DNA of 64,000 nt, from NCBI GenBank assembly GCA_045599245.1, contig JAZRVP010000077.1, positions 17,691 to 81,690 on the forward strand. The letters run 5' to 3'. Below are positions 5,985-58,420 of this stretch, piece after piece. Each line of letters opens with the position of its first letter. Within the stretch, counting starts at the first letter, position 1. Both the position numbers and the translations under genes were made by a program. This DNA comes from Myxococcota bacterium. GTDB taxonomy: Bacteria > Myxococcota_A > Bradymonadia > UBA4248. Below the pieces are notes generated by a model. It saw nothing but the letters and a program-made list of their open reading frames with translations. It searched no databases and was not told the origin of the DNA.

Positions 5985-6085
5985 AGGTCCGCGAAGCGGC
6001 CGAGCACATAGCGGCCGGCAGGAGGCCGTATGCGTGAGCATAGGCCGGCAGCGAAGGCGTATTGCCGAAGGCAATAGCTGAAGCC
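5985..6085. repeat. REP-like hairpin array (GCGTATTGCC-gaa-GGCAATAGC family)
   Basis: ggccgtatgcgtgagcataggccgg and ggcgtattgccgaaggcaatagc units in the divergent intergenic region. Confidence 0.6.
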
Positions 6086-6302
6086 ATCCCAATAAATATT
6101 GATTCATTGGAACGATACAAACTTGATGATTTTGTTTGAGGCATTGTCAAAGCGCATGTTTCATTGGCTGATAAAGATTGGGACTATGAAAAAATAACCA
6201 ATAAACAGCGTGCATGGATTGTGAGGGGAGTGTAAAGATGGGCATTTGCTGCGCAAACCAGTTGAGGTTGCGGCATTTTAAATGGAATTTAGCAGGTGAA
6301 GG

Positions 6303-7502
6303 ATGACAAGAACGTATTTTGAGCATAGTCGAACGCCGTCTCTTGAGGATCTCGAGGCGAATGCATGTCATGAGGCGTGGGAAAAATATTGCGAGTGCGG
6401 GGGGGAGAGGTTTGATCTGAGCGGGAGCAATCCGACGCGAGTGAATTTTCCGATGATAGAACCGGATACAAGAGCGTTGGATAGTGCGGTGTCGGCGCGA
6501 TATGAGGCGTCAGCGCAGGGGCTGTTGATGGCGCGTCAGGCTGTGTCGGATTACTACGGCGGCCGGGTTCCGGTGGACCGGATACAGCTTTTTGCGTCGA
6601 CGAGCGAGGCGGTTGGGGCATTGGTCAAATTATTCTGCCAGCCTGGGGATGAGGTTGTGACGTGCATTCCGACGTATCCGCTTTTAGACTGTCTTTGTTC
6701 TCTGGAGTGTGTGAGGCTGGTTGAAGTGCCGCTCCAGGATTGTGCGGGGCAGTGGGCGGTTGATTTCTGGGCACTTGAACGGGTGTGCTGTGAACGGACG
6801 CGAATGCTGATTGTTGTGAGTCCGAACAATCCGACGGGGCATTGCATTCCTCGGGATGAAATGCGTCAAATCGTTGAATTTTGTGCGGCGCGTTCGATAG
6901 TGGTTGTCGTTGACGAGGTATTTGCAAGCTATCGTCTGGATGACAATCCGGAATTGACAAGTGAGCCTGCTGCTGCGGATTATGACAAGGGACTGATGAT
7001 AAGCCTGAGTGGATTGTCGAAAGTGTGCGGACAGCCGCAGCACAAGCTTGGATGGGGCGTGTTTGGGGGAGATTCAGCCCTGGTTGAGGAAGCCATGCAG
7101 CGGATCAGTTTTATTACGGATTCGACGTTGAGTGTTTCGGGATGGATTCAGCGGATGGCTCCGTCTTTTATTGCATCGAGAGCGGTGTTTCACGATGCGT
7201 GTTGTGCGCGCCTGCGAGAGAATCTTTCGTATTTGGAGCGGTATGCAAAGCGTGATGACGTCCAGTGGACGGTGGATCGAGTCGAGGGCGGATGGAGCGT
7301 GTGCGTGCGATTGCCCGGATGGGCGGACGATGAAGAGGCCGCTGTGATGTTGGCTCAAGGTGGCGTCAGGGTTTTTCCCGGGTTATTTTTTGGATATCGA
7401 GCGAATCAGCCGACACTTGTGTTGAGTCTCATCACGGAGCCGGAGATTTTTGCGCGCGGTGTCGAAGAAATGGGGAAGTTATTAAAGGCTTTTTTGAGTT
7501 AA
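6303..7502 (+). CDS. PLP-dependent aminotransferase, class I/II fold
   Basis: 399 aa. 'VVSPNNPTG', 'VVVDEVFASY' and 'SLSGLSKVCGQPQHKLGWG' (the PLP-Lys region) are typical of fold-type I aminotransferases. GAAGGA RBS. Confidence 0.8.
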   Translation: MTRTYFEHSRTPSLEDLEANACHEAWEKYCECGGERFDLSGSNPTRVNFPMIEPDTRALDSAVSARYEASAQGLLMARQAVSDYYGGRVPVDRIQLFASTSEAVGALVKLFCQPGDEVVTCIPTYPLLDCLCSLECVRLVEVPLQDCAGQWAVDFWALERVCCERTRMLIVVSPNNPTGHCIPRDEMRQIVEFCAARSIVVVVDEVFASYRLDDNPELTSEPAAADYDKGLMISLSGLSKVCGQPQHKLGWGVFGGDSALVEEAMQRISFITDSTLSVSGWIQRMAPSFIASRAVFHDACCARLRENLSYLERYAKRDDVQWTVDRVEGGWSVCVRLPGWADDEEAAVMLAQGGVRVFPGLFFGYRANQPTLVLSLITEPEIFARGVEEMGKLLKAFLS

Positions 7503-7884: not shown

Positions 7885-7989
7885 TCCCAATTCAGGGTCT
7901 GTGCATCCCTCTCGGATGCACTCGCTGGCATATCGGCACAGGTCGATATGCCTTTTTTTTGCAATCGTTCGTCTTTAAACTGTTTGTGG

Positions 7990-8052
7990 GATGACTCTGC
8001 TAAAAAATATTGAGGATTCCAAAGTGTTTCAGGTCTTTGGTGGGGGGGGGCA
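7990..8052. repeat. conserved intergenic element, partial copy (aaaatattgaggattc plus hairpin)
   Basis: ctaaaaaatattgaggattccaaagtgtttcaggtctttggtgggggggg. It shares the AAAATATTGAGGATTC core with 4262-4352 and 51737-51860 but carries a different hairpin (ccaaag..ctttgg). It lies between convergent genes. Confidence 0.45.
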
Positions 8053-8084
8053 AAGCTTCAGCTGAGTAGTAATGTGGCATGGCT

Positions 8085-8185
8085 ATTGGCCGCCCGCCAA
8101 TACGCAATGCAGGGCGCTCCTATTGCGCTGGCGCGCAATACGGCGCTTTTTGCAGGCTATCGGCAATGCCGATACGCCTGCAATT
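8085..8185. repeat. REP-like hairpin array (3 units)
   Basis: ggctattggccgcccgccaatacgc, ctattgcgctggcgcgcaatacgg and ggctatcggcaatgccgatacgcc. Confidence 0.65.
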
Positions 8186-8188
8186 TTT

Positions 8189-9031
8189 TTACATGCCGGC
8201 GGCTTCCTCCAGCATGCTCATGATGGATTCGACGTCGAACGTGCCCTGTACTTTGCGGCCATTGAGAAAAAATGTGGGCGTCGATTCGACCTGGTTTGTC
8301 AGGCCTTCTTTTTTAGAGAAAACAACGGCGTTTCTTATGCCTGCATCCTGCATGAGAGCTGCAAATTTTTCAGTATCGAGCTGAAGGTCCTTGGCAATTG
8401 AGGCACTCAATTCCGGCGTGAAACTGTCAAAATTCTCATACAGTTTGAGCAGGAATGGCCAGGCATTATCGAGTTTTGCTGCGGCTTCTATTGCAAGGGC
8501 CGCCTGCGTGGAATTTTCATGCTGCTTGATGGGGAAAAGCCGGAGATTAATCGCAACTTTTTCTTTAAGCGGAGAGGTTTCAAGTGCCTGAATGAGCGCC
8601 GGCACATGCCTTGAGCAGTATGGACATCGTCCACAAAGATAGACTGAAAGAACGACTTTTGCGTCTTTGTTTCCCCAGAGATGATCTTTCTGAATGGCAA
8701 TTTTGGCAGGCGGTGTCACGGCAGTCATCGTCATTGCTCTCTGATCGAGGATATGACGGATTTCAGTAGAGGATTTTCCGGCCTTGGCAAGACGGCATGT
8801 TTCATCGGCAAGACGAACCGCGAGCTTGCATTCCGGAGCCTGGGAGAGACATTTTGCGATGGTGTCGTCACAGCAGTCATAGAGATAGGCTGCATTCATA
8901 ACATCTTTGGAAACGGCAGCTGATTTTTCATCAAGTGAGTTGCACAGCGGCGTTTGAGCCAGGGCCAGAGATGGCATAAGCGAAAGAAACAGGATAGGAA
9001 TGAGTTTCAGTTTCAACATATTCATCCTCAA
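8189..9031 (-). CDS. DsbA-family thiol:disulfide oxidoreductase (thioredoxin fold) with N-terminal Cys-rich domain, secreted
   Basis: Signal peptide ending SLALA|Q. CGRCPYC active-site region within a thioredoxin-like C-terminal half. The start overlaps the upstream gene's stop by 4 nt, indicating translational coupling. Confidence 0.7.
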   Translation of the reverse strand: MRMNMLKLKLIPILFLSLMPSLALAQTPLCNSLDEKSAAVSKDVMNAAYLYDCCDDTIAKCLSQAPECKLAVRLADETCRLAKAGKSSTEIRHILDQRAMTMTAVTPPAKIAIQKDHLWGNKDAKVVLSVYLCGRCPYCSRHVPALIQALETSPLKEKVAINLRLFPIKQHENSTQAALAIEAAAKLDNAWPFLLKLYENFDSFTPELSASIAKDLQLDTEKFAALMQDAGIRNAVVFSKKEGLTNQVESTPTFFLNGRKVQGTFDVESIMSMLEEAAGM

Positions 9032-11514: not shown

Positions 11515-11524
11515 AATAAACCTG

Positions 11525-16540: not shown

Positions 16541-17710
16541 TTGAAATACGAGCTTCTAAAAGAAGAAGAACAGGCTGTCAGAGCGATAAAAAATGAACTT
16601 CATCGTCATCCGGAAACATCATGGGAAGAGGTTGAGACGACAGCATTAATTCGTCGTGAGATTGCGAAAATTCCCGGAATGGAAATCGTTGAAACCGGTA
16701 TGAACACCGGTGTTATTGCGCTTCTTCGCGGTGGACAAAAGGGGCGTTGTGTGTCTCTTCGAGCGGACATCGATGGGTTAAACGTTATTGAAAAATATGA
16801 AAGTGATGTCATGAGTGAAGTGCCGGGCAAAGGGCACCTTTGCGGTCACGATTTCCATACAGCCGGCCTTTTGGGGGCTGCTAAAATATTGTCGCGAAAT
16901 CGCGATGAGTTGAAGGGAACTGTACTTTTCATCTTCCAGCCGGCCGAAGAAACAACCAATGGCGCAAGAGAAATCATTAAAACCGGTGTGTTTGAGCGAT
17001 TTGAGGTTGGTGCAATCTTTGGGCTTCACAATCGACCGGAGGAAGAAACAGGACATGTCGTCGTTAAACTCGAGCCTTTGATGGCCGCCAAAATCAATTT
17101 TAAAATTGTCATTCATGGCTTCGGCGGCCATGGCTCGATGCCGCACAAGTGCATTGATCCCATCGTTTGTGCTGCTGGAATCGTTCAGAATGTGTTGACG
17201 ATTCCGGCGAGAAATGTCGATCCGATGAAATCGCTCGTGCTTTCGATATGTTCGATTCACGGCGGTACGCCGGCGAATCTCATCGTCGATCAAGTCGAGA
17301 TGACGGGTAGTATGCGGTATCATGATCCGGAAGTTGGACAAAGGGCTCTGGAACGACTTAAACAGGTCGTGACTTCGACTGCGGATGTGTTCGAATGCCG
17401 ATCAGAGTTTGAGATTGTGGAACAGGTGCCTGCCGTTATCAATAGCCCGGAACTACTTGAAACTGCTCAAAAAGCTGTAGAACTTGCTGTCGGTAAAGAG
17501 GCCGCCATCACTTCTGAAAGTGGTCTCGCAACGGAAGATTTTGCCGATTATATGCAGATTGTTCCTGGATTTTTCTTCTGGTTGGGGGCAAGAAAACCCG
17601 GTGATACCTGTTTTGCATGGCACAACGAGAAATTTCATACAGATAATGATGCATTAAAGTTCGGCAGCCAGTTGCTTGCGGCATGTGCAAATGAATGGTT
17701 AATGAAATAA
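16541..17710 (+). CDS. M20D family amidohydrolase (N-acyl-amino acid/hippurate hydrolase-like)
   Basis: TTG start with AAAGAGGAG RBS. 'GHLCGHDFHTAGLLGAAKIL' and 'LFIFQPAEE' metal-binding signatures of peptidase M20D. Confidence 0.8.
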   Translation: MKYELLKEEEQAVRAIKNELHRHPETSWEEVETTALIRREIAKIPGMEIVETGMNTGVIALLRGGQKGRCVSLRADIDGLNVIEKYESDVMSEVPGKGHLCGHDFHTAGLLGAAKILSRNRDELKGTVLFIFQPAEETTNGAREIIKTGVFERFEVGAIFGLHNRPEEETGHVVVKLEPLMAAKINFKIVIHGFGGHGSMPHKCIDPIVCAAGIVQNVLTIPARNVDPMKSLVLSICSIHGGTPANLIVDQVEMTGSMRYHDPEVGQRALERLKQVVTSTADVFECRSEFEIVEQVPAVINSPELLETAQKAVELAVGKEAAITSESGLATEDFADYMQIVPGFFFWLGARKPGDTCFAWHNEKFHTDNDALKFGSQLLAACANEWLMK

Positions 17711-17721
17711 AACGCCGCGTA

Positions 17722-17832
17722 TCCCAAAGGGATAGCGGCGTTACGCGAGCCGTATTGCGCGAAGTGCAATAGGCGCGAAGCTCCGTGCGAACCGCACGGA
17801 GCTTACATGGCGTATTGGCCAAAGGCCAATAG
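17722..17832. repeat. REP-like hairpin array (4 units)
   Basis: aacgccgcgtatcccaaagggatagcggcgtt, ccgtattgcgcgaagtgcaatagg, gctccgtgcgaaccgcacggagc and cgtattggccaaaggccaatagcc. Confidence 0.65.
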
Positions 17833-17869
17833 CCATGCCCCCAAACATTTCCTGTGATGATGCTGATGC

Positions 17870-21894: not shown

Positions 21895-22059
21895 TCCTTT
21901 CACTCCTTTTCTTTTTGAACGGAAAAACGCTCGCGACTGTCGCGTCACGGTTGTTTAAAAATTTGAAAATATCTAAACGTTTTTGATTTTAAGAGATTTG
22001 GAGCAATTCTTCAATCATAATTGTTAAAATGAGTTTATATGATTTCAAATGAAACTAAT

Positions 22060-22150
22060 GTTGGCGTGTCTATTGCCTACGGCAATACGCCACTGCCTTC
22101 GGCCTATGCGTCTATCGCCGCATACGGCCTTCGAAGTCGTTTTTTTACTC
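22060..22150. repeat. REP-like hairpin array
   Basis: gtctattgcctacggcaatacgcc and ctatgcgtctatcgccgcatacgg. Confidence 0.55.
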
Positions 22151-27984: not shown

Positions 27985-28035
27985 TGGGGGGCGGCTATTG
28001 TCATACGCCGCCGGCCGCTCGCTATTCGGCCGGTG
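27985..28035. repeat. REP-like hairpins
   Basis: ggctattgtcatacgccgcc and ctattcggccggtgggccgaatac. Confidence 0.5.
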
Positions 28036-28189
28036 GGCCGAATACACGAGCGGGAAGTTTATGGTGGATGCAGATTCGTGCCTGAAAAGGAACCGGAAAT
28101 GATGTCGTGATCGCGTTTGAAATTCTCACGATTTCTGCATAAAACCATGACTTTCGGAATGGAAATTGAACCGTGTGAAAGAAAAAAGC

Positions 28190-28292
28190 ACCCACTCGCG
28201 TATTGCGGCAAGCAATAGCGAGTGGGGAGGCGGCGTATTGAGCGCAAGCGAGAAGCCGCCTGACGCGGGCGTATGGCAAAGCCATAGCCGGC
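28190..28292. repeat. REP-like hairpin array (3-4 units)
   Basis: gcgtattgcggcaagcaatagc, ggcgtattgagcgcaagcg.. and ggcgtatggcaaagccatagcc. Confidence 0.65.
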
Positions 28293-28478
28293 GCACCAAA
28301 TAAGGATTCAAGTGTTTTAGATGATTGATGAAACAAACTGAAATATATCATAAAATGATATAAATGAACAAATATAGCGATACAATATATATATCAATAA
28401 AAGTTTGGTTGGATTGATACTGCACTTTTAAATTAAAATGTTTGGTTTTGTGTTTTGTCCAAAGCAAAAGGAGAAGAT

Positions 28479-42954: not shown

Positions 42955-43090
42955 CAGGCATTCTTCGGTGCAGGCCGAGCGTATTGGCGCAGCCGATAGC
43001 GGGGCCCGGGGGAGCGTATTGGCGCAGCCGATAGCGAGCAGACGGCGCGCGTATTGCCGGAGGCGATAGCGGCCGCACGATAAGGCGTGA
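42955..43090. repeat. REP-like hairpin array (4 units)
   Basis: gagcgtattggcgcagccgatagcgg appears twice. Also gcgtattgccggaggcgatagcgg. Confidence 0.7.
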
Positions 43091-44639: not shown

Positions 44640-44690
44640 ACTGTCGTCTGAATTGGATTCATTCAGACGGCATCATTTTTGAGTGTTTCA
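44640..44690 (+). terminator. terminator-like hairpin
   Basis: gtcgtctgaattggattcattcagacggc followed by atcattttt. Confidence 0.5.
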
Positions 44691-44736
44691 AGTCTTTTTC
44701 TGCGTCTCTCATCACTTTTTTCACGGAGATTTACAC

Positions 44737-45885: not shown

Positions 45886-46035
45886 GGATTTATACGCCCG
45901 CCTATTTCATACGGCGTGCCGGCCCGGCTATCGATGATACGCCGGGCCTTTTTTCTATTTTTGCACCAGAAAGCCTCATTCGTTGTGCTGAGTTTGGCGT
46001 TCTGTTTATACAAAACAAAGAGTTAATGAGGTAAT

Positions 46036-46806: not shown

Positions 46807-49800
46807 TTATTTGCTCATCATTTGTTTGCATATACTGTTTGCAGACATATATGCCTCAAGAGACTGACCATCGAAAACGATTTCCGGTTTGTCGTCAGCA
46901 TCGGTATAGGCAATCCATGCGCCTTTGACGCGATCTGAAGAGGAGGCTGAAAGACGAGTTTTTCCAAGACTTCCAATGCCTTCCCATTTGCCGTTTTTAA
47001 TGACTTTTGCTTTATAGCTGAATTTTGTTTTTTCGGGTTTATTGCCACGTGAGAGTTCGCCACTGCCTTGAAGAACGAAGCTGACGGCATGGGAAGTGTC
47101 GGTAATGCCGAGGTTTCCAGCGAATTTTCCGACTTCAGCAAAAGCTGTATTACAAAGTGAAGTCAGAACGGGAACGGGGACTGAGGTACTTCCGACAGAA
47201 ATCGGGCTCCCGAAAACGGTGTTACAATCGAAGAGTTTTGTGAACTCATAAGCGCCGTTATTATCGACAAATTTATCAGAAAGAACGGTTTGGAAAGCTT
47301 CGATGAGGAATTTGCCGTATCTGAAATTGACGAGGTCATCGGTTACAACAAATTTGTTTTCTACGACTTTGGCTTCTTTCCACGAGCTTTCACTGACGGG
47401 TGAAATGGGACGTTTTTCACCTTTTTTAATGATATCAAAGTTAGAATATTTAATTTTTCCATCATAAACGCCGTCCATTTCAGTCAAATTCATGCTGCCG
47501 ATAAGTTTGACGAACTGAATGGAATCGAAGGCATCGCAGACGGTTTTTTGAACATTTTCAGGGGAAAGATATTTATCGACGAGAGGTTGAACGATTGTTT
47601 TCACAACGGCTCGAGTAGCTTGTGAATTACGTTCAATCGCGGATTCATAAAAAATATTGGCACATGGACAGTTGCAACTTGTATAAAATACCTTTTGCCC
47701 AATGTTTTCAACACTTCCCATTGCATTTTTATTATATTCACTACATGAATCGACTTTTTCCAATTTTTGATCTTTTCCTGGGTATGTACAAACGGAATGA
47801 TCATATTCATAGAAAGCTTTTAAACATATATTTGCTCTTTCGGATTTATAATCAGTAGCACCAACATCATCAAAAACGATATAATTGACGATATGATCGG
47901 TGATAAGGTTTGCGGGATCTTTATTAACGAATTTATTATAATTTTCGATGAATTTTTCGAGACTGTTGCCAAGTTCTGTACCTTCTTTGAGGTATGGAGC
48001 GAGGTCGAGGACGGTTTCGGTCGTGTAATTGGTATTTTGTTGAATTTCATCGGGGATGGGGCCGAGTTTGATGGTGGCATTGAGATCGCGAACGGGTTTG
48101 CAGACATCTTTTGTGGAGCCATCATCCAAGGTGACTGTGTATTTATCGGCTTTTTTGCATTTGAGAGGGGAGTATGCGGGGCCAAAGCTGAAAGGGCCTT
48201 CACAACCGATGGCAACCGGTTTGTCGCCCTGATTTGCGACGGCATAAATGATATATTTTTGAGGAGTCGAAGACCGATCAGAAGCCTTATAGCTGTCACC
48301 GGCATCTGTTCCTTCGAGGCTGCAGAAGTTAGGTGCACCGCCCAGGCTGCTTGACGATGGGAGGGCTTCGCAATCTGATTCGCGAGTATCTTTGTCATTG
48401 ATGACGAAATTGCTTCCGCAGGAATGATAATCAGCCGAAAGGGCATAATAGCTGACGCTGTCAAAAGAAGTTCCAGAGACTCCGGAACTGTCGGCAGTCA
48501 CGTTGATATTGTTGATATTGGTGGGTTCGGACTTATCGGACATTGTACCTGTGACGGTGACATAAATGCTTTTTGCATCCATATTTTCGCCATTTTTGAG
48601 GTTTGGATACATGGCATTGACCTGATAAGTGGTTGCTTTGGAACCGGCATTAAATTTAATGGTGGCTACGCCTTTGTCATCGGTGTGAGATTTTGAAGCT
48701 GACAGAGAGGCATCGGCTCCGGCCGGAGAATTGAGTGTCCAGAGGATATTGTCGTGAACGGGTTCCATGGTGGAACCGTTTTTCCAGATGAGTTTGACTT
48801 TGAGATCGATAGATTCTCCAACTTTAGTCGTTTTATAGCTGTCGCCGTCGACGATGAGTTCGAGGCACTGGGCTTCGCCTTCTTTATTTTTCTGAGGAAT
48901 ACAGCATTCGGGTTTGTTGCCTTCGTTATAGCATTTGGCAATATCCTCTTCTTTGGTGCAAGTTATGAGGGAGCCGCAGCTGCTTACTTTTTCGGGATAA
49001 ATCGGATTTGGTGTCCAGGGGTCTTTTGGCTGTTCCGGTTCTGATGGCGGGAGACTGGGAATGGAGCCCGTGTCATTTGTTGTCGTGATCGTGAAGACAA
49101 ATGGAATGAGATTGTCTTTGTCATCTTTGGCATTGGGGTGGAAGACACTGACGTAGTAGAGGGAATCGACACCGGTGCCGGTATAGAAATTGTTGGTGGC
49201 AATACCGTCATTGTTGGTAATGGGAGAATTATTTGTAATCGTAGCATTGTCATTGACGGATTTGCTGCGGGTAACTTTCCACCACGTTTTTGTATTTTTA
49301 ATTGGTTTAGGGGGATTGGAGTCTTTTTCGGAGACAAGAACCTGAAGTGCGAGTGTTTTGACGACTGGGGATGAGATGGACTGAACGCCACCCTCGGGCA
49401 GAGAGATTGTGACGGGACCGATATCAGGAATGTAGGGGTCCATTTCCGATGGCGGAGTTTTGGCGTCCTCAACATTTACTTCACTGTGATCACCGCCCTG
49501 GTAGGTTGGAAGATTCAGGGAGTTGTTGACGAGAATAGGAATGAGGACTGGCTTTGCCTTTTTGGCGCTTGTTTCGAGGAAATATAGGGCATCATAAGCA
49601 TTTCCGGTCCAGAATGGAATTGTAAATACTTTTGAATCGTCGGCCAGATCCGTCAAGTGTTCGACTTTGTCTTTATTTTTAGCGGAATCAATGAGCATCC
49701 CGTTATTGGATTTATAGGAACCTTTTTTGAGATCGACATTAATTGTTCCACTTTTTTCAGTATCTTTTTTAATATCTATAAGTTTTACATAAACGGATTG

Positions 49801-51513
49801 AGTTTCATCCAAAGAGGCGTGAATGATAGAGGAACAAGGTCCAAAAGTGCCGTCCTTTTTGGTGCTGCAAATCATTTTTTGAGTCGCGTCATCACATAAT
49901 TTTACATATTTTGTATAGAGGCAAGGATTGGGGGCAACCTCAACTTTTCCGTCATAGTTGGTATCATAACCCTGGAAGAAGGTTTCGCCCTTGCCATCTT
50001 GAGCAAAAACGAGACGAACGGGATCATCCAGTTTATCGCCGTTGACATCGGTCATGATATTTGTACCGTCGCAAGTCTGGAGAGACCAGGTTCGGTCTGT
50101 ATTTTGAACGAGTTTGCAGTTAAAGGACTTGTCTTTGGGGCAGCCGTCATTGCCGGTGCATTTGTCCATATCACCGCATTTTTTCTCGATTTCGACTTTG
50201 ACAGGGTCGAGTTCTTCATCATCGATTTGAGTTTTACCGTCTTCAACAGGATAAAAAATACCTTTGAGAAGATCGGCTGCGGCGCAGCCGGAAAGCACTT
50301 TTGAACCCGCTTCGTCTTTAGCCTTGGATGTATCAACTTCAAGGCCTTCTTCCGTCAATTTGGCTTCATCTCCGGGGTCGCCTGTTTTACCCATGGCATA
50401 GGTTGTGATGGTATAAGTTACGTTTTCGCTGGCCAATGGGTGATAGAAATTGAGGAAATATTTGGCACCATAAGATGAAGCGGTGGAAACATTGACCCAA
50501 AACTCACCATTTTGGTCTGTTTCACCGCAATTTTTATTGATACCTTTTTGTTTTTTTGAATCTTCAAATTGTTTGCCATTTTTGAATTTACCTTTTGAAG
50601 AGGCATCTTCACTGACAAAAGAAGGATTTTTTGCAGTAGTTTCAACGAAAGTCCAGCAGATGGGTTCCTTTTCAACACTGCAGTCAGCTCCGGTGGGATC
50701 ATCCTTGCAGGTGCCGGTTAATTTTACGCGAAGTTTTTGTTCGGATTCTGCATAAAGTTTTTGTTCGAGATTATCGAGATTGACGAGTATGGCTGATGTC
50801 AGATTTGAAGTTTTGTCCGTACTTGTATCTGTTTCATCATTGACTGTGTCTGTTGTTCCCTCAGTGAGGTCGTCACTGATTTGAGGAATTTCATGGACAT
50901 AAACATCGACGCTGTTTTTTGAATTTTTGACGCAATCTTCATTGTTTTGACAATCGGCCTGCCATACGGTGACGCGATACATGGGTTTTGTTGCGTGATA
51001 AGAAGTCCCGGTGGAGAGGCGGAAGGTGATTTGATTGTTGACGGGTTTGACAATGATTTGGGTATCGGTCGATGTATCGTCCTTTTTTAAACGATAATCC
51101 GAATCGACTGAGAGTGAGCCGTTGGCGCCGGCAGCTTTTTCCAGTGTGATGACAAACTGCTGAACTGCACCTTTGGTATCTCCTGCGACAAAATCAACAT
51201 TAAATTCATTGATCTGATTGATATGGGTTTTAAAGGTGCCGCTGGGTGATAGGGTAATGCTTTCGAAACTCTCGTATTGTCCTGTACTTCCTGTAAACTG
51301 CTTACCGGGCTCTTTAGATGAAGATGTATTTAGCCCGCTGCCGGAAGTTCCGAGAATGGCTGCTTCATTTTCTGTTCCAGTGGCATATTTGGTTCCGCCG
51401 ACATCGACGGGTTCGCCACTGGCGCGACGCGAAGACCATGTTTCCGTATTTGCGCATCCAAAGAGACTGAGAGCACAAATATATAGTGCCATTCTCGTGT
51501 ATGAAGCTTTCAT
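46807..51513 (-). CDS. giant lipoprotein paralog 1 (1568 aa), unknown function
   Basis: Start re-assigned to MKASYTRMALYICALSLFG|CANTE with a perfect GGAGGT RBS. Paralogous over most of its length to 52000-57873 (e.g. RRASGE..GANGSL..TGTSY..PMY.V.VW.AD). Many conserved Cys pairs. Confidence 0.8.
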   Translation of the reverse strand: MKASYTRMALYICALSLFGCANTETWSSRRASGEPVDVGGTKYATGTENEAAILGTSGSGLNTSSSKEPGKQFTGSTGQYESFESITLSPSGTFKTHINQINEFNVDFVAGDTKGAVQQFVITLEKAAGANGSLSVDSDYRLKKDDTSTDTQIIVKPVNNQITFRLSTGTSYHATKPMYRVTVWQADCQNNEDCVKNSKNSVDVYVHEIPQISDDLTEGTTDTVNDETDTSTDKTSNLTSAILVNLDNLEQKLYAESEQKLRVKLTGTCKDDPTGADCSVEKEPICWTFVETTAKNPSFVSEDASSKGKFKNGKQFEDSKKQKGINKNCGETDQNGEFWVNVSTASSYGAKYFLNFYHPLASENVTYTITTYAMGKTGDPGDEAKLTEEGLEVDTSKAKDEAGSKVLSGCAAADLLKGIFYPVEDGKTQIDDEELDPVKVEIEKKCGDMDKCTGNDGCPKDKSFNCKLVQNTDRTWSLQTCDGTNIMTDVNGDKLDDPVRLVFAQDGKGETFFQGYDTNYDGKVEVAPNPCLYTKYVKLCDDATQKMICSTKKDGTFGPCSSIIHASLDETQSVYVKLIDIKKDTEKSGTINVDLKKGSYKSNNGMLIDSAKNKDKVEHLTDLADDSKVFTIPFWTGNAYDALYFLETSAKKAKPVLIPILVNNSLNLPTYQGGDHSEVNVEDAKTPPSEMDPYIPDIGPVTISLPEGGVQSISSPVVKTLALQVLVSEKDSNPPKPIKNTKTWWKVTRSKSVNDNATITNNSPITNNDGIATNNFYTGTGVDSLYYVSVFHPNAKDDKDNLIPFVFTITTTNDTGSIPSLPPSEPEQPKDPWTPNPIYPEKVSSCGSLITCTKEEDIAKCYNEGNKPECCIPQKNKEGEAQCLELIVDGDSYKTTKVGESIDLKVKLIWKNGSTMEPVHDNILWTLNSPAGADASLSASKSHTDDKGVATIKFNAGSKATTYQVNAMYPNLKNGENMDAKSIYVTVTGTMSDKSEPTNINNINVTADSSGVSGTSFDSVSYYALSADYHSCGSNFVINDKDTRESDCEALPSSSSLGGAPNFCSLEGTDAGDSYKASDRSSTPQKYIIYAVANQGDKPVAIGCEGPFSFGPAYSPLKCKKADKYTVTLDDGSTKDVCKPVRDLNATIKLGPIPDEIQQNTNYTTETVLDLAPYLKEGTELGNSLEKFIENYNKFVNKDPANLITDHIVNYIVFDDVGATDYKSERANICLKAFYEYDHSVCTYPGKDQKLEKVDSCSEYNKNAMGSVENIGQKVFYTSCNCPCANIFYESAIERNSQATRAVVKTIVQPLVDKYLSPENVQKTVCDAFDSIQFVKLIGSMNLTEMDGVYDGKIKYSNFDIIKKGEKRPISPVSESSWKEAKVVENKFVVTDDLVNFRYGKFLIEAFQTVLSDKFVDNNGAYEFTKLFDCNTVFGSPISVGSTSVPVPVLTSLCNTAFAEVGKFAGNLGITDTSHAVSFVLQGSGELSRGNKPEKTKFSYKAKVIKNGKWEGIGSLGKTRLSASSSDRVKGAWIAYTDADDKPEIVFDGQSLEAYMSANSICKQMMSK

Positions 51514-51714
51514 TTTTACCTCCAAACGATTTACGTTGATGTTTCGCATTTATTCCAAAAAAATAATGGCCTTTGTTTATACAAAATTGCACGTTCCTTT
51601 TGAAGAATAATTCTAAAAATAATAAATGATGATGTTACATCTCAGCCAGGGAACCTCTGAACAAAACGATAATTTAAGGAAGTAATTGTCGAGAGCCAGT
51701 CGAGACGTTGTGTA

Positions 51715-51870
51715 CAACACCTCGGCCCCGGCGAGGAACAAGGAATAGGCAGCTCAAAAGGCTTATACTAACTTAAAATATTGCGGATTCTTAAGGGCTC
51801 AGCCCTTAAGCAGGGTCTGGGGCAGAGCCCCAGCGGGGTTCGGGGCAGAGTCCCGATGAATAGTAACATA
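51715..51870. repeat. conserved intergenic element, copy B (motif 1, motif 2 and a duplicated GGGGCAGAG hairpin)
   Basis: cctcggccccggcgaggaacaaggaataggcagctcaaaaggcttatactaacttaaaatattgcggattcttaagggctcagcccttaagcagggtctggggcagagccccagcggggttcggggcagagtccc. It lies about 200-350 nt upstream of the paralog-1 start. Confidence 0.6.
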
Positions 51871-51954
51871 ATGAGGTTACTACTGGTGGGGTCTGGGTCA
51901 AAGCGCCAGAAAAAAAAACAATTAATCAGATGTTCCCTGATTGTTCGTCTGAAA

Positions 51955-51992
51955 AAAAGGCCGGTCATTATGACCGGCCTGAATTGACGTTA
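51955..51992 (-). terminator. rho-independent terminator for gene 52000-57873
   Basis: ggccggtcattatgaccggcc hairpin with a T7 run on the minus strand. Confidence 0.7.
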
Positions 51993-51999
51993 AAAATGA

Positions 52000-54900
52000 T
52001 TATTTTTCGAAGCCATAAACTCTGATGTCATCGAAGCGAAGCATCTTGTAGGCATCGGCATTGTCACTGCTTCCTTTAGCCGCTGTCGGCCAGAATTTGA
52101 ATTTGGTAAATGCCCGTCCGGTTGTTTTGAATTCAACGGATTTGGTTACCCATTCGCCTTCGGGAGCAATCAGTGAAGACTCCTCTTTGACGTCGATTGA
52201 TTTCGGGCCGTCATCAATTGTTCGATAATTGATGACACGACCGTCGCCATAGACTTTGGCTTCCACCTTGGTGATTTCATAATTTCGATTGCTCGTAGAA
52301 TTGCTAATCATGAACAGGCAGTTCGTTTCTGAGCCACTGACCACCTTTGTTCCCACTGCGTTGAGAGCACTGTCGGAACCGGCCACGAGTTTAACCGGAT
52401 ACTTGGGACAATCATAAATCAAAGCAAAGTCACTCTGTTTTATGCCGGCTTTGGCTATGATGTTGGAACTGAGGTCAGAATTCAGTCCTTCGTCATCTGC
52501 CGTTGTTCCATTCCAGTATGAACCGAAATCCCATTCTGCAAGAATGACTGAAACAGGTTCCGGCTTGGATTCATCCTTTCCGGAACTGTCGACACATGAA
52601 GTGAGTTCGCTGTTCATGACACAGGCAGGGAGATCGCATTTGCCGTCACAGGCTTGTTTAACCTGCTCTTTGATGCATTCGCTCCGTTCTTTGCTGCCGC
52701 AGATCGTATTAAGTGCCGCTATGAAATGCTCGTCTTCGATCGAAGACGGAACTGAGTCGTCATCGGAAATAAGTCCATTTTTGTCGCAGACAAAAATGGT
52801 CGGGTTGTCTTTACATGCCGGAATGTTGCACGCCGTTTCAAGACACTTACTGTTGGTGATTCCTTCGCCGTTGTTGATGATTTCTTCTTTGTTGGCTTGA
52901 CAGTCGGACGGATTACCCTGTTTGCGGCAGGCTTCATTGGCGGCTTTGATAATCTGTGATGCGCTGGAACCTGAATATAGACTGTTGACGGCGCCTTTTC
53001 CATTGACTTTGGTGCAGACAACGATCGAAGTCTTGTCCAGACATTCAGGCTTTTCACAGGCTGTTCCTGAGGTTCCCTTGGCAATGTTGCTGTATGCCCC
53101 CAGGAGACATGCTTTATTTGACTTGTATTCTGAGAGGCTGCTCTTGAGATTTTGCATACAGATGCTGTTTTCAGCCTTGTATTCGTCAAGAGATTTCGTC
53201 CCGAATTTCATCTCCGGCTCTTCTGCACCATCGGTATATCCGATCCAGACACCATTGATCTTGCCATTATCTGACTTGCCATCGGCCTTTGTCGCGCCAA
53301 GATTGCCTGTTCCTTCCCATTTGCCGCCCTGAATGACAGAGGCTTGACAGGCAATCTTGGTTTTGTCCGGAAGACATGTATTTCCTTTGGCAAATTCGCC
53401 TGTTCCCTGAAGTTTAGCACTCAAAGGAATCGTACCCTTGTCTGAAAGATCGGCAGTATAATCACCGAGTTTTCCAAGGGCCGTACGACAAATTCCCTTC
53501 AAAAGATCGGAGCTGACGCTCGTTATACCAAGATTGATATCGCTGTCGAATATCTTGTCGCAATCAATGCCTTTGGTCAGGTCAACCTTTCCGGTCTTCA
53601 AATCCAGGGCGCCAATGAATTTGCCAAGAATCTGATACAGGAATTTGCCATAAGTGAAGTTGATGGTGAAATCGGAAATCGAAAGCTGTGTGCCATTCGT
53701 GACCTTGGCTTCTTTCCATTTGCCTTCGATAACGGTTCCTTCGAGATCGATTGCTGTGTCTCCAACATAAGGAATCATGGCTCCTGAATATCGGGCACTT
53801 CCTACGTATTTTCCGTCTTTTTCTTCCAAAGACATTTTTCCGACCAGTGTTACAAACTGAAGGCCGTCAAAGACTTCACATAATTTGCTCTGAAGAGCGT
53901 CCGGACTCAAATATTTGTTGATGAGACTTTTGAGTAGCTTTTGCGCCAGCGGTGCCAGCTTTTTGCCTATCGAATTGACAGCAGTCCAGTAATAAAGATC
54001 GGCACACATGCAGTTGCAGTTGGTATAAAATGCCTTATCGTTTTCTTTGACACTGCTGTCACTCCAGTCACTGCACGAACTGATGTGCGTCAGTTTGCCG
54101 CTATTGTTTTTATACCGACATTTTTCCGGATTTTTGTCATAAAAGAACGTGATACAATCATCTGCATCGGGGGTTCCAGTATCTTTGCCTGTATAAACTA
54201 TCGATTTGGTCAAGGTATCGATAATCTTATCGCCTGGGTTGGTACCGACAAATTTGGCATAAGTATCCGTCAGCTTTTGCAATGCCTGACCGATTTCCGA
54301 GTCATTGCCCATCAAAGGTCCGAGATTGACCATCGTTTTGGTATTGTACAGGGGCTGAATGACCGTCGGTATTTCGCTCAAAGACACGGTTGAAACCAGT
54401 TCACGAACGGGTTTGCAGGTCTTTTTCTCCGTTCCATCCTTGTCAATTTTAAACGTTGCGTTGTCGTCGTCACATTCCTTGGGAACTGTTGATGAACTGA
54501 AGCTGATGTATGGCTCGCAGCCGTATGCAACTGGCGAGTTGCCTTTGTTGGCAATAGCAAAAATCGTATATTTGTCTGCAGTTGGGGCGGTTGCTGTCGC
54601 CTTGTAAGAATCTTCTTTTTTGCTCCCCGTCAGGTTGCAGAAGTTTTTGCCGCCCGTGGTCGTTTTATATTCGCCACAGGCTTCCTGGCGCGCGTCTTTT
54701 TCTGCCAAAAAGAACTTTTCTGAGCAGTCATAGAGATCAGCCGGAAGGGCATAATAGCTCACGGAATCAAACTCAATCTTAGGGATGTTTGATGTGTTGG
54801 CCTTGAGCGTAATATTGTTCACATCAGAGCTTTCTGTTTTGTCATCCAGTGTGCCTTTGACGTTCACCATGATGCTCTTGGGAACCATGTGTCCATCTTT

Positions 54901-57873
54901 ATGAATATTGGGATACATGGCATTGATTCTGTAAGTTGTTGCCTTCGAACCGGTCTTGAAAAGTACGTTGGCATATCCATTTTTGTCAGACCCTGAACTT
55001 GAGCTAAGCAGGGCGCCATCGGCGTCTTTATTTCCATCGAGTGTCCAGTAAATCGTGTCTCGGATCGGGGTCACTTCGGAACCGTTTCTCCACACGAGAC
55101 GGACTTTGACTGAAATTGTGTATCCGACACCCGTCTGGATGACATCTTCGCCCTCGAAAATGAGTTCCAGACAGCCCTGTTTTTTGTCGGCGTTCATCTG
55201 CATCGATGGACAGCAGGCGGGTACCTCGCCGCCCTCCTGGCTGCATTTGGCTTTGTCTGATGCATTGCAACTGCATTCGCGTTCATCGCAGCCGACACCT
55301 TGCGGATATTTGGGGTTGGTCGCTTTGCCATCGACCTGCTTGAGATTGCCTTCGCAGTTGCCCTCGCAAACTGTTCCGTCTTCCTGGATGGTATCGCCCT
55401 CGGGACGACTTGGATCAGCCGGCAGATCACTCTCAAGCGCCCCCGTGTCATTCGTCGTTGTGATCTGGAAAACAAAGGGTTTTGGCTTGTTTTCTTCATC
55501 CAGATAATTGGGATGGAACACGCTGACAAAGTAAACGGAATCGTAGCCTGTGCCTGTATAAAATGCATCACTCGCCACACCTTTGCTATTCGTCATGGCT
55601 GTTGACGCGGTTAGGGTCGCATTGTTGTTCACGGATTTGCCGCGCGTGACTTTCCACCAGGTTTTGGTATCGGGTACGAGCGTCTTGCTCTTGTTATCTT
55701 TACGTACAAGAACCTGAAGATTCAGTGTTTTGACTACGGGCGAGGTGATTGTTGCCGAACCTGAGGCTACGGACAAGGTCACTTTGCCGATATCGGGAAT
55801 ATAGGGCTCTATGTCGGCTGGCGGCGTGTATATCGACGGATCATCCGGATCGGCCTTGTCGCCTTTGGCTGTCGGGATCGATATCGAATTGATAATGCGC
55901 AGTGGAATGAGAACAGGCTTCGTTTCATCTGCTGTCGTTTCGAGATAATACAGGGCATCGTATCCAGTCCCAGCCCAGGCTTCGATATTATATATTTTTT
56001 TGCTCGCTGATATCTTGACGCTTTCTACCAGCTTGCCATTTTCGTCCTTGAGCATGGCATTATTGGTCGCCAGGGCTCCTCGCTGAATCTCAACCTGGAT
56101 CTCGCCATCTGCGTTTTCCTTGCCGTTGTTATCCAGCTTTTTCACATAAATCGTGACATCTTCATCCAGCTTTGCACTGACCGTCGAGCACGTTCGGAAT
56201 GTTTTTTTATTGTCCGTGCTGCAGACAAATGAATATTTCGCTTTTTTACATATATCTTTATATTTTGAATACAAACAGGGGTCTGGGGCAACTTCGACTT
56301 TTCCGTCATAATTGATGTCATAACCCTGGAAATAGGTATTGCCTTCACTATCTTCGCCCATGACGAGACGGATCGGATCGTTCGTTTTGTCATCGTTGAT
56401 ATCCGTCATCAGCTGTTTGCCTTCGCAGGACTGAACGGACCATGTCTTGTCACTGTTCTGAACCATCTTGCAGCGGAACGAATCGGCACTGCAGCTGTCT
56501 TTGCCGCTGCATTTGTCCATATCGCCGCACTGATCTTCGATGGAAATCTTTACCTTGTCGTCATCTGAATAGAAAATACCCTTGAGAACTTTGGCGGCAG
56601 CACAGCCCGAGAGTTCATTTCGACCGTCAGCGTTCGGTTTGGCTTCGCTCAGATCTGTCTTCAGGGCGTCGTCCGAGAGCAAGGCTTCATCGCCCGGATC
56701 TCCCAGAGTATCGGGCATCACAAACGTCCGGATGTCATACGTCAGAGGCGCCGCAACCTTGTGGAAAAAGTTGAGATAATATTTGGAATTATAGGTGCTG
56801 CTCGTGGATACTTCCGCCCAGAAAATTCCGTTAGAATCGGTCTTTCCGCAGCCCGTATTTTTTCCTCTTTTATTCTTCTTATCCGCGAACTGCTTGTTAT
56901 CCGTGTATTTTTTGTCGCTGTCTTGCGAGACGAAACCTTTGTTTTTTTCGCTCGTTTCGACAAATGTCCAGCATACGGTCTCATTGCCAACGCAGCTGTC
57001 ATCCGCTTCGTCTTCTGTGCTTTCGCCGTCTTCTGTGCTCGGTTCCTCGTCTTTTTTGCCCGGAGCTGTATCCGCACATTTGCCTGAGAGTTCGACGCGA
57101 AGTCTTTTCTCGTCATCGACAAAGAGCTGCTGGTCGAGTTCGTCCAAATTGGTGAATACTGCCGTCGAGAGTTTGGAATCCTTCAGTCCGTCGGGAACGG
57201 TCAGGTCATTGTCGACATCCAGCGTGCCTTCTTCATAACCGTCGCTCATTTGAGGCGGCTTTCGGACGATAATTTTCGCCTCCAGCGGCTGGGCATCTTC
57301 TTCGGCATCGGCATGCCACACATTCACGTAATACATCGGCGTCTTGCTGTTGTACGAGGTACCTGTCTGGACGCGGAATGTGAACGAGTAATCGGTTCTC
57401 GGTGTTATGACGGCGCGTGTTTCCGTCGGCGGGAACTTGTCGGCATCATACAGAGACTCGCTGTCAACGATAAGCGAACCGTTTGCGCCGGCTGCGCGTT
57501 CCAAAACTATGACAAACTGCGGTTTGTTGGCATGACGATCGGCTTCCGGTGATATTTCAACCGTAAATTCAATGATTTGATTGATAAATGTTTTCGCATT
57601 ATCCGGTTCTATGGACAGTTTCAGGTCATCATACTGCCCCTTCTCGCCAAGCATATCTTTGCTCGGTTTGGTTTTGGGGTTGTTGGCAAGTCCTTTGTTT
57701 TCCTTGCCAAAGACATTGTCTTCGTTATCCGTCGAAGTAGCATAATTGCCGCCCGCAATTTCTATCGAATCGCCGCTTGCACGTCTTTCAACGATTTCTT
57801 CCGTATTGGCACATCCTGCCACGCTTAAAATGCAGAGGTAAAGGGATGCTCGCGACAATGTCATTTTTTTCAT
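52000..57873 (-). CDS. giant lipoprotein paralog 2 (1957 aa) with C-terminal extension ending in WDF-domain
   Basis: MKKMTLSRASLYLCILSVAG|CANTEE with an AGGAGG RBS. Paralog of 46807-51513. It has an extra approximately 400 aa: Cys-rich modules plus a terminal approximately 190-aa domain starting 'VILAEWDFGS'. Confidence 0.8.
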   Translation of the reverse strand: MKKMTLSRASLYLCILSVAGCANTEEIVERRASGDSIEIAGGNYATSTDNEDNVFGKENKGLANNPKTKPSKDMLGEKGQYDDLKLSIEPDNAKTFINQIIEFTVEISPEADRHANKPQFVIVLERAAGANGSLIVDSESLYDADKFPPTETRAVITPRTDYSFTFRVQTGTSYNSKTPMYYVNVWHADAEEDAQPLEAKIIVRKPPQMSDGYEEGTLDVDNDLTVPDGLKDSKLSTAVFTNLDELDQQLFVDDEKRLRVELSGKCADTAPGKKDEEPSTEDGESTEDEADDSCVGNETVCWTFVETSEKNKGFVSQDSDKKYTDNKQFADKKNKRGKNTGCGKTDSNGIFWAEVSTSSTYNSKYYLNFFHKVAAPLTYDIRTFVMPDTLGDPGDEALLSDDALKTDLSEAKPNADGRNELSGCAAAKVLKGIFYSDDDKVKISIEDQCGDMDKCSGKDSCSADSFRCKMVQNSDKTWSVQSCEGKQLMTDINDDKTNDPIRLVMGEDSEGNTYFQGYDINYDGKVEVAPDPCLYSKYKDICKKAKYSFVCSTDNKKTFRTCSTVSAKLDEDVTIYVKKLDNNGKENADGEIQVEIQRGALATNNAMLKDENGKLVESVKISASKKIYNIEAWAGTGYDALYYLETTADETKPVLIPLRIINSISIPTAKGDKADPDDPSIYTPPADIEPYIPDIGKVTLSVASGSATITSPVVKTLNLQVLVRKDNKSKTLVPDTKTWWKVTRGKSVNNNATLTASTAMTNSKGVASDAFYTGTGYDSVYFVSVFHPNYLDEENKPKPFVFQITTTNDTGALESDLPADPSRPEGDTIQEDGTVCEGNCEGNLKQVDGKATNPKYPQGVGCDERECSCNASDKAKCSQEGGEVPACCPSMQMNADKKQGCLELIFEGEDVIQTGVGYTISVKVRLVWRNGSEVTPIRDTIYWTLDGNKDADGALLSSSSGSDKNGYANVLFKTGSKATTYRINAMYPNIHKDGHMVPKSIMVNVKGTLDDKTESSDVNNITLKANTSNIPKIEFDSVSYYALPADLYDCSEKFFLAEKDARQEACGEYKTTTGGKNFCNLTGSKKEDSYKATATAPTADKYTIFAIANKGNSPVAYGCEPYISFSSSTVPKECDDDNATFKIDKDGTEKKTCKPVRELVSTVSLSEIPTVIQPLYNTKTMVNLGPLMGNDSEIGQALQKLTDTYAKFVGTNPGDKIIDTLTKSIVYTGKDTGTPDADDCITFFYDKNPEKCRYKNNSGKLTHISSCSDWSDSSVKENDKAFYTNCNCMCADLYYWTAVNSIGKKLAPLAQKLLKSLINKYLSPDALQSKLCEVFDGLQFVTLVGKMSLEEKDGKYVGSARYSGAMIPYVGDTAIDLEGTVIEGKWKEAKVTNGTQLSISDFTINFTYGKFLYQILGKFIGALDLKTGKVDLTKGIDCDKIFDSDINLGITSVSSDLLKGICRTALGKLGDYTADLSDKGTIPLSAKLQGTGEFAKGNTCLPDKTKIACQASVIQGGKWEGTGNLGATKADGKSDNGKINGVWIGYTDGAEEPEMKFGTKSLDEYKAENSICMQNLKSSLSEYKSNKACLLGAYSNIAKGTSGTACEKPECLDKTSIVVCTKVNGKGAVNSLYSGSSASQIIKAANEACRKQGNPSDCQANKEEIINNGEGITNSKCLETACNIPACKDNPTIFVCDKNGLISDDDSVPSSIEDEHFIAALNTICGSKERSECIKEQVKQACDGKCDLPACVMNSELTSCVDSSGKDESKPEPVSVILAEWDFGSYWNGTTADDEGLNSDLSSNIIAKAGIKQSDFALIYDCPKYPVKLVAGSDSALNAVGTKVVSGSETNCLFMISNSTSNRNYEITKVEAKVYGDGRVINYRTIDDGPKSIDVKEESSLIAPEGEWVTKSVEFKTTGRAFTKFKFWPTAAKGSSDNADAYKMLRFDDIRVYGFEK

Positions 57874-58269
57874 TTGGTCCTCCTGATGCCGTAAAAATCA
57901 CACAAAAAACCATTTTTCATTTTATCATTTTTAACGCATTTATACAAGAAAAGAGCATGCCTGAATTTGTTTTGTTCCGTCATTCTTTAACCATGTTTTC
58001 CGATTATCTTTGATTGTAATATTTCAATCGCGTTTGATTAAATATGGTTTGTATATCATTTTTTCCTTAATTCAATAATTCAAATCAATACTGAATGTCA
58101 TTTCATTTGAAGTTTATTTGGATATTAATACTCATGATTTAACCGTAACCTTTGTTGTGATGATCGCTCATTGCCGCATAAAATAACGGTATTGGTAATG
58201 TAAAAATAATCGTGATGTGTCGTTTGTAATGTTCAAAAAAAATGCTGTTTATATATTTGAATTTGGGCG

Positions 58270-58420
58270 CATCTATGCCCGTCGGGCATACGCTGCGCTT
58301 ACGCTCGGCTATCGGAAGACCGATACGCCTCGCGGACTTTTATTTTTATTCACGCCCAGTGCAAAAGGGCAGGGCAGTGGGGGGAGCGGCGTATGGCGAA
58401 GCCATAGACGCGCGGGGGGA
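58270..58420. repeat. REP-like hairpin array
   Basis: gggcatacgctgcgcttacgctcggctatcggaagaccgatacgcc and ggcgtatggcgaagccatagacgcg. Confidence 0.6.

Follow-up and report, generated by a model that had tools for sequence, protein, structure and literature searches.

The 64,000-nt stretch of Myxococcota contig JAZRVP010000077.1 analysed here at its full length (assembly GCA_045599245.1; hereafter the window) carries a family of short imperfect hairpins stacked in intergenic arrays, which is very probably repeated hairpin DNA of the repetitive extragenic palindrome (REP) type. Each hairpin is built around a fixed, asymmetric core with a bulged G, inserted into a stem that varies freely on both sides of it, and one subfamily carries a GTAG tag at its foot. 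We lean towards the view that this is a lineage-specific family of REP-type elements, in which the bulged core of the folded single strand is recognised, probably by an enzyme resembling the REP-associated tyrosine transposases (RAYTs). In bacterial genomes, few non-coding features are as abundant as REP elements; their spread and their possible service to the host are still debated, and nearly all data on them come from cultured Proteobacteria. With the family described here, the range of REP-type elements comes to include an uncultured clade of Myxococcota type from animal guts.

A hairpin family concentrated in intergenic DNA

The window was searched with a strict scanner, which accepted a unit when GTAT and ATAG enclosed three or more consecutive inner pairs and a loop no longer than 5 nt. 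Eighteen units were returned, compared with a mean of 0.2 and a maximum of 1 in 100 first-order Markov simulations, and 17 of these 18 units fall outside long open reading frames (ORFs), non-ORF DNA making up 8.9% of the window. With the loose pattern GTAT-N-ATAG we counted 30 matches, against 5.85 +/- 2.5 in dinucleotide shuffles, and 0 of 100 shuffles reached 30; the frequency of the motif is therefore well above what base composition predicts. About six further weak or degenerate copies (6028-6043, 22104-22125, 27990-28012, 28228-28262, 45902-45912 and 45928-40) lie within the same arrays, which brings the window to some 25 copies.

The first-pass annotation of this DNA had proposed a REP-like, high-copy intergenic family at nine clusters. 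Hairpins of the kind it described were found at all nine, the variants TATGGC/GCCATA, TATCGGC/GCCGATA and TATCCC/GGGATA were all seen in the window, and the counts given above bear out both the high copy number and the intergenic placement. Its statement that most of these hairpins are not simple terminators also holds, since approximately 80% have no adjacent T-run on either strand. REPs in the broad sense are palindromic stem-loop units of 20-50 nt, present in high copy and overwhelmingly extragenic; the present family consists of hairpins of ~34 nt, and its distribution between ORFs and intergenic DNA in the window agrees with this definition. The Rfam 15 covariance models gave no match at gathering thresholds, and none with E <= 1 at any array, so that the families of this database were rejected as an identity for the repeat. 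A tRNA search found none, and no description of this motif or family was found in the literature searched.

The conserved motif is the internal core of a longer stem

The unit is an imperfect hairpin of ~34 nt, in which an outer stem of ~7 bp leads through a C-G pair, a bulged G and a TAT/ATA segment to a 3-5-bp inner stem closed by a triloop. In the pairing register that we observed, the G of GTAT stays unpaired, ATAG contributes its G to a pair with the C just before GTAT, and from this pair the helix extends outward. The fixed core comprises the C-G pair, a single G bulged out of the 5' arm, and the pairs T-A, A-T and T-A in this order; this mid-stem core alone is fixed, the outer and the inner stems being variable and both covarying. 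CGTAT and ATAG had initially been taken for the conserved flanks of a shorter hairpin, a description which has to be corrected, since they form the internal core of a longer stem whose outer part covaries too.

The unit statistics reported here and below are drawn from the window and from related loci (designated by numbers preceded by L), largely loci among the genome-collection matches listed. Over 443 units, the Watson-Crick fraction at the seven outer positions is 0.91, 0.88, 0.69, 0.62, 0.64, 0.67 and 0.39, then 0.15 at the following one. Outer-stem pairs are no part of the scan criteria, and G-C, C-G, T-A and A-T interchange freely there. In an alignment of 69 equal-length units (A1), a 16-pair structure with a single bulge leaves 80.0% of the cells paired, versus 62.6% when shuffled, and sliding the partner by 1-3 columns lowers pairing to 26-42%. 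This alignment has a covariation score of 0.387 versus 0.115, with both sides varying in 12 of the 16 pairs, and the compensatory variation of the stems claimed from the first inspection is thereby confirmed.

The hairpin element is strongly strand-asymmetric, as judged by its bulged G, purine-rich loops, bias towards purine.purine mismatches and excess of T.G pairs. On the GTAT strand the triloop is mainly GCA (47), AAA (28) or GAA (19), and mismatches of the outer stem are purine.purine in 181 cases versus pyrimidine.pyrimidine in 30, while the first inner pair is T.G 13 times versus 4 times for C.A/A.C.

Arrays are head-to-tail, spacer-free and frequent at gene 3' ends

Neighbouring units have the same orientation in 96 of 102 pairs, the remaining 6 being inverted, and their start-to-start spacing is 32-38 nt. 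Since this spacing corresponds to one full hairpin length, the arrays are stacks of hairpins devoid of spacers. They reach up to 7 units. The architecture of bacterial interspersed mosaic elements (BIMEs) or of REP doublets forming hairpins (REPINs), in which a REP and an inverted REP (iREP) are separated by a short spacer, is not that of this family, as shown by the small number of inverted pairs.

Gene 3' ends are adjoined 160 times and 5' ends 81 times, and some arrays lie in divergent promoter regions. At 3' ends, antisense arrays are in modest excess over sense ones (100 versus 60), which is the sole orientation bias found. Units placed in co-directional gene contexts showed no bias (sense 37, antisense 36), and neither did a comparison of GC skew with array orientation in the window, where there are ~5 arrays per strand. 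A T-run lies within reach, on either strand, at 47 of 228 units (21%), and the G+C hairpin with immediate T-run that characterizes an intrinsic terminator is thus not a general property of the family.

A GTAG-tagged composite subfamily

Some copies belong to a composite form of 55-60 nt with the layout GAGGGG-GTAG-CGGC-G-TAT-(variable upper stem and loop)-ATA-GCCG-...-GGGGGAGACTTCCCCC, which combines a long palindrome, a mid-stem bulge and a variable upper stem. The tetranucleotide at the foot of the hairpin, examined in 35 copies, is GTAG in 23, GGAG in 7 (the window copy included) and GTCG in 2. Among the bulk units, GTAG occurs within 16 nt upstream in 42 of 424, with no fixed offset.

Between genomes, composite copies are 82-91% identical and their gene contexts are unrelated, and unlinked loci of one metagenome-assembled genome (MAG) carry near-identical composites. 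Locus L118 contains two 100% identical 49-nt composites, inverted and 1.4 kb apart, which we count in support of a non-tandem mode of copying. Whenever two composites lie within 1.4-6 kb of each other they are inverted, with their GTAG ends facing inward, and they bracket one co-directional gene block (7 of 7 pairs: L049, L072, L087, L142, L233, L245 and L118); in 3-4 of these seven pairs the variable upper stem is common to both members. Such bracketing pairs may be the boundaries of cassettes or insulators, or an accident of recombination.

The family is shared by related gut genomes

A genome collection was scanned with the pattern GCGTATTGSSN{3,5}SSCAATAGC, and at least 115 stretches matched. 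The matches listed come mostly from animal-gut MAGs labelled 'Proteobacteria bacterium' (ruminant RGIG2907, 464, 7731 and 4413) or Myxococcales/Myxococcota (UBA4248, W2P31.034 and several SGB bins); elsewhere, those listed are scattered single matches, presumably due to chance. In the 74 sequences with at least 2 units, which are 73 loci among the matches listed plus the window, we counted 258 units in 560 kb, and 74% of the units sit in the 13% of this DNA that is non-ORF. A metagenome scan yielded 67 additional family-bearing contigs.

The density across the clade is ~0.3-0.5 units per kb. Loci picked through their M20 peptidase gene and not through the repeat (L116, L118, L120, L122 and L124) contain 0.26 units per kb, which extrapolates to about a thousand units per genome or more. 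The gene content of the window (Bat operon, MutS2, Ser/Thr kinases, DUF4215 repeats) fits a Myxococcota-like organism. The closest named relatives of its M20 peptidase are those of RGIG MAGs, at 70% identity, and the MurC-kinase-HD-M20 synteny is kept. An identical core is found in MAGs whose M20 orthologue is just 64-70% identical to that of the window.

Short-read contigs of related organisms often stop in or near a unit, as does L119, whose end at 2259-2275 reads ...GCGTATCCCAAAGGGATAG. Because contigs such as this one end inside a unit, the arrays break the short-read assemblies of these MAGs, and they can also be miscalled as ORFs.

Arrays evolve by gain and loss of units and by compensatory changes in place

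The inner sequences are very diverse, with 174 distinct ones among 236 units, and units next to each other show no greater similarity than random pairs (outer-arm identity 0.38 versus 0.36). Tandem duplication was therefore rejected as the general origin of the arrays, except for a minority of recent tandem or higher-order duplications, found in the window (42981/43016), L102 and L074.

Comparisons of orthologous sites were made in the M20 peptidase neighbourhood. Orthology of the window with the loci derived from the pattern scan was considered and discarded, as these gave just paralogue-level protein matches. Between genomes at 65-70% protein identity, the positions of the arrays differ: downstream of the M20 gene, the window has an array in plus orientation, RGIG2907 has one in minus orientation and another relative has none. 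Two closer lineages (L121-123 and L124-126, ~83% nucleotide identity) have arrays at the same two sites, with invariant core columns and three compensatory double substitutions: one turns an inner G-C into C-G, and two outer C-G pairs have become T-A and A-T, respectively. One lineage also has a whole 31-nt unit that the other lacks (L124 6222-6252 region, alignment A2 columns 222-252), and in this unit the TAT/ATA core is compensated to TGT/ACA (GTGT..ACAG). Nearby non-repeat intergenic DNA is far more diverged between these lineages than the arrays are. Since orthologous arrays keep the core, show compensatory changes and outlast their flanks, both pairing and core are maintained in place. 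The arrays themselves change by gain or loss of whole units, with occasional tandem or higher-order duplication.

Arrays of the window

The arrays of the window and its single composite copy are the following.

5977..6085, plus strand: array in a divergent intergenic region, with units 6028-6043 and 6059-6077 and a possible degenerate or nested unit at 5975-6011.
8074..8184, minus strand: array of three back-to-back units (8083-8103, 8120-8141 and 8157-8175), directly after the stop of a DsbA-like gene (8189-9031, minus strand).
17709..17842, plus strand: array of three units (17719-17735, 17752-17772 and 17812-17832), immediately behind the stop codon of the M20 peptidase gene.
22060..22136, minus strand: unit 22070-22088 and a second, irregular one (22104-22125), upstream of a 1344-aa ORF in a divergent region.
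27990..28055, minus strand: two units, 28022-28045 (6-bp inner stem) and the minimal 27990-28012.
28188..28296, plus strand: array upstream of a 1289-aa ORF, with units 28200-28218 and 28271-28287 and the degenerate 28228-28262 in between.
42970..43080, plus strand: three units with a 35-nt period (42981, 43016 and 43051), whose stems need T.G wobbles.
45900..45954, minus strand: two minimal units, 45902-45912 and 45928-45940.
58262..58336, minus strand: units 58273-58291 and 58309-58326, flanked on either side by a giant minus-strand gene.
58379..58431, plus strand: copy of the composite subfamily, made of a G-run, GGAG, a bulged hairpin (58391-58407) and then the hairpin GGGGGGACACTTCCCCCC.

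Folding of the arrays as single-stranded DNA gave contiguous bulged hairpins in five of six window arrays, with z-scores from -4.6 to -10.7. Three bulged hairpins were obtained for 8074..8184 (z = -6.2) and four contiguous hairpins for 17709..17842 (z = -10.7), while the values were -5.9 for 22060..22136, -4.9 for 28188..28296 and -4.6 for 58262..58336. The DNA fold of 42970..43080 was no better than those of shuffled sequences, and its hairpins were recovered with RNA parameters; its units 42981 and 43016 share identical cores, which indicates a recent tandem copy. In the minimal unit 27990-28012, a 4-nt loop is closed directly by TAT/ATA and the outer stem has 6 bp. On the plus strand, the unit 45928-45940 presents a G+C stem followed by a T-run and is terminator-like for the gene 44683-45885. 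The composite lies 16 nt from the stop of the gene 58447-61632.

The first unit of the 17709..17842 array is kept in the relative L119, whose M20 protein is 92% identical. One slot of this array, at 17778-17805, is filled by a perfect 11-bp hairpin that lacks the core (AAGCTCCGTGC-GAA-CCGCACGGAGCTT) and represents a unit that has decayed or else an unrelated hairpin that the array has captured.

Search for a RAYT

The window contains no RAYT, as first reported: Pfam on its 33 ORFs and tblastn found no Y1 transposase. The search was extended with tblastn and an HUH...Y-x-x-N-P motif scan to 1.79 Mb of fetched DNA, of which ~1.2 Mb, from more than ten genomes, is family-bearing, and no Y1 or RAYT gene was found there. 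The tblastn queries (E. coli YafM and IS200 TnpA) served as leads rather than as reference sequences; they gave chance matches only, the best being in L077, inside a nucleoside-transporter-like ORF.

The DNA lying between oppositely oriented units was inspected as well. A Pfam scan of nine ORFs so placed assigned six to ordinary families (cyclophilin, TetR, NifU, Sdh and others) and left three without a Pfam match. At L099 2917-4050, a gene of a PD-(D/E)XK 'transposase' family (PF12784, E = 2e-10) stands between the opposed units 1940 (plus) and 4260 (minus); near the repeats no other gene resembling a nuclease or a transposase was seen, and the position of this one is probably coincidental. 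Recurrent paralogue families of the repeat-bearing loci were also considered as candidate transposases and rejected, as they turned out to be Ser/Thr kinases and DUF285 proteins.

How the family may spread and what may maintain it

The core is fixed, asymmetric and bulged within an otherwise free helix, and it is kept across 64-70% protein identity, which argues for recognition of the folded strand by a protein. It is probable that the hairpins are recognised as folded single strands by a dedicated protein. In view of the GTAG-tagged composites, a RAYT-like enzyme is the most likely reader and copier, and that the dedicated protein is a RAYT proper has close to, or slightly less than, an even chance. 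The core, together with the GTAG foot of the composites, would be the recognition site of a protein reading the folded single strand, and a HUH/Y1 RAYT encoded elsewhere in the genome is the candidate for this role. Such an enzyme would copy composites to new loci, as fits the identical copies at unlinked sites of one genome, and the plain hairpin arrays would be local derivatives of the composites. Stable hairpins at the 3' ends of transcripts probably affect the host, and a minority may double as terminator stems.

Several observations weigh against this scheme. About 90% of the units are devoid of the GTAG tag. No RAYT was seen in the window or in the ~1.8 Mb sample, which is weak evidence because one RAYT per ~5-Mb genome gives ~0.2-1 expected matches. 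Neighbouring units are mostly head-to-tail, whereas the REPIN, which has been proposed as the RAYT substrate, consists of two inverted units, and the very high diversity of the units, together with the lack of similarity between adjacent ones, is unlike REPIN populations derived from a master copy. Finally, compensatory evolution in place and the better conservation of the arrays point to a constraint at the level of the host and not to a purely selfish element. Head-to-tail spacer-free arrays, extreme diversity and compensatory evolution in place do not fit REPINs or BIMEs, and they keep an explanation by host elements alive.

According to that explanation, the hairpins are structural elements maintained by the host without a dedicated transposase, either as RNA hairpins at 3' ends (exonuclease block, insulation) or as extrudable DNA cruciforms bound by a protein; a nucleoid or topology protein would read the bulged core, and whole units would be gained or lost by slippage or unequal exchange. 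We consider it unlikely, though it deserves serious weight. Orthologous arrays persist across ~17% nucleotide divergence with compensatory changes and above the conservation of adjacent intergenic DNA, units within an array differ like random pairs, so that most must be old, and both whole-unit indels and higher-order tandem duplications are seen. The preference for gene 3' ends, often abutting the stop codon, and the bracketing of co-directional gene blocks by composites, without exception among the seven pairs, agree with it too, and CGTC-type REPs have likewise been reported without a dedicated transposase (PMC3733652). However, the hairpins follow no clear rule of orientation with respect to transcription (37 sense and 36 antisense in co-directional contexts, 100 antisense and 60 sense at 3' ends), and a strand-asymmetric hairpin lacking such a rule is hard to square with a protein-binding site on RNA. 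Array positions are moreover not kept at 65-70% protein identity, which implies new arrays at new loci, beyond what slippage alone can produce, and identical composites of 49-60 nt at unlinked or inverted sites require a copying mechanism.

An extension of the host explanation, which we regard as improbable, denies that the plain arrays are passengers of a transposase and assigns them to a host-maintained boundary system of spacer-free extrudable hairpin stacks, with the bulged-G core serving a lineage-specific structure-reading protein and the inward-facing composite pairs acting as topological or transcriptional insulators around single transcription units. If this were true, the hairpins would represent a new functional class of bacterial intergenic element and not a new REP family.

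The remaining explanations need neither a transposase nor a host function. Template switching is a known mechanism of quasi-palindrome correction, in which an intrastrand switch copies a change from one arm to the other, and a mutation bias of this type would account for the compensatory double changes between orthologues and for the arbitrary stem sequences. Such switching would remove the bulged G and the purine.purine mismatches too, whereas the bulge stands in the same register in >90% of units and is invariant in orthologues, and it leaves the fixed TAT/ATA core and the spread to thousands of sites unexplained; we therefore hold it to be very improbable as the source of the covariation. 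Ordinary intrinsic terminators, or chance hairpins produced by a G+C-rich intergenic composition, deserve practically no credence. A few terminal units are indeed followed by a T-run (8157, 45928 and 58309), but T-runs are found at 21% of units only, some arrays occupy divergent promoter sites or comprise up to 7 units, and the fixed core is common to several genomes; these figures, together with 18 units in the window for 0.2 expected, exclude both.

Other features of the window

A second, unrelated element of ~60 nt occurs at 4293-4351, 8003-8060 and 51774-51833 of the window, all on the plus strand, and at 525-584 of L092. Its layout is AAAATATTGAGGATTC, a hairpin (CTTAAGGGCTCAGCCCTTAAG or CCAAAG..CTTTGG), then GGGGTCCGGGGCAGAGACCCGG; copies of the window and of other MAGs are 85-88% identical, and no Rfam match was obtained. 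G+C-rich palindromes GGGTCTGGGGCAGAGCCCCAGACCC are present at 51800-51910, in 2-3 copies between two giant minus-strand ORFs, and also in L077 (5575-5600 and 5690-5749); their core GGGGCAGAGNCCC has 9 occurrences in all the DNA examined.

The segment 4062-4985, between a 917-aa ORF and a beta-lactamase-fold gene, comprises ~900 nt without an ORF of 60 aa or more, and it holds one copy of the second element and several hairpin-like segments (e.g. 4722-4790). Four very large ORFs have no significant Pfam domain (46807-51549, 1580 aa; 52000-57873, 1957 aa; 17914-21948, 1344 aa; 1308-4061, 917 aa) and probably encode surface or secreted proteins. A (TA)8 microsatellite is located at 35275-35290, in or beside the Bat-operon ORF 34742-35917.

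Comparison with known systems

Like the E. coli REP/BIME elements and other group-2 REPs, the family consists of imperfect palindromes of ~35 nt, intergenic and in high copy, whose stem has a conserved irregularity at its middle, with an upper stem free in sequence but constrained in structure and a preference for gene 3' ends, where REPs have been reported (PMC3733652). The composite subfamily also has GTAG directly 5' of the stem. Its GTAG foot, mid-stem bulge and variable upper stem match the description of group-2 REPs, of which TnpA-REP of E. coli reads the GTAG, the lower stem and the bulge, the upper stem being structural only (PMC8266576). Unlike E. coli REPs, most units here are without GTAG, the fixed motif lies within the stem and no RAYT has been seen so far in the window or the ~1.8 Mb sample. 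E. coli BIMEs alternate REP and iREP with spacers, whereas the present units are head-to-tail and spacer-free; in the known REP superfamilies, head-to-head or tail-to-tail dimers prevail and head-to-tail dimers are negligible (PMC3733652). The likeness to E. coli REP/BIME elements proposed by the first-pass annotation thus stands for the repeated intergenic hairpins and, in one subfamily, for GTAG, and fails for the architecture (96 of 102 pairs head-to-tail) and for the mid-stem position of the core.

The GTAG- and CGTC-tagged superfamilies (Di Nocera et al. 2013, PMC3733652), such as SMAG of Stenotrophomonas and dRS3/NIME of Neisseria, are likewise small palindromes with a tag, and complementary changes in the stem set their sub-families apart; they occur in several phyla, some families are clustered and some have no known transposase (PMC3733652). 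Their tag is unpaired and terminal and their stems have 6-9 bp, while here CGTAT is partly paired inside a stem of ~15 bp. GTAG-tagged, RAYT-associated REPs are recognised by a tetranucleotide (GTAG or a GYRG variant) immediately 5' of the palindrome and by a RAYT gene (Y1 HUH transposase, Pfam PF01797) in that genome, usually with REPs on its flanks. As for the REPINs of Pseudomonas (Bertels and Rainey 2011, PMC3116915), they too are short repeats that persist in a lineage, and the composites resemble them in forming near-identical populations per genome and in being inverted when close. However, the two inverted members of a REPIN are separated by a short spacer, whereas the inverted composites lie 1.4-6 kb apart around gene blocks, and unlike REPINs the bulk of the family consists of direct arrays of very high sequence diversity.

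CRISPR arrays were rejected, as there are neither spacers nor cas genes. The attC sites of integrons are imperfect hairpins with extrahelical bases and variable stems, of which one folded strand is read, and their arrays have a uniform orientation. The present units recall them by the extrahelical base of an imperfect hairpin, by variable stems between short conserved motifs and by the uniform orientation of the arrays. Unlike attC sites, these contiguous 34-nt units have no cassettes between them and no RYYYAAC/GTTRRRY motifs, and no integrase lies nearby; integron attC was rejected for the absence of cassettes and of an intI gene.

The family combines three unusual traits, namely a recognition core placed within the stem, spacer-free head-to-tail arrays and compensatory evolution observed directly at orthologous sites. 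Since conserved GTAG-tagged forms and highly diverse untagged forms have one core in common, it offers a natural test of transposase recognition versus host selection. The family resembles REPs, and one of its subfamilies fits the GTAG superfamily, but its internal core and array architecture are distinctive and its clade is unstudied.

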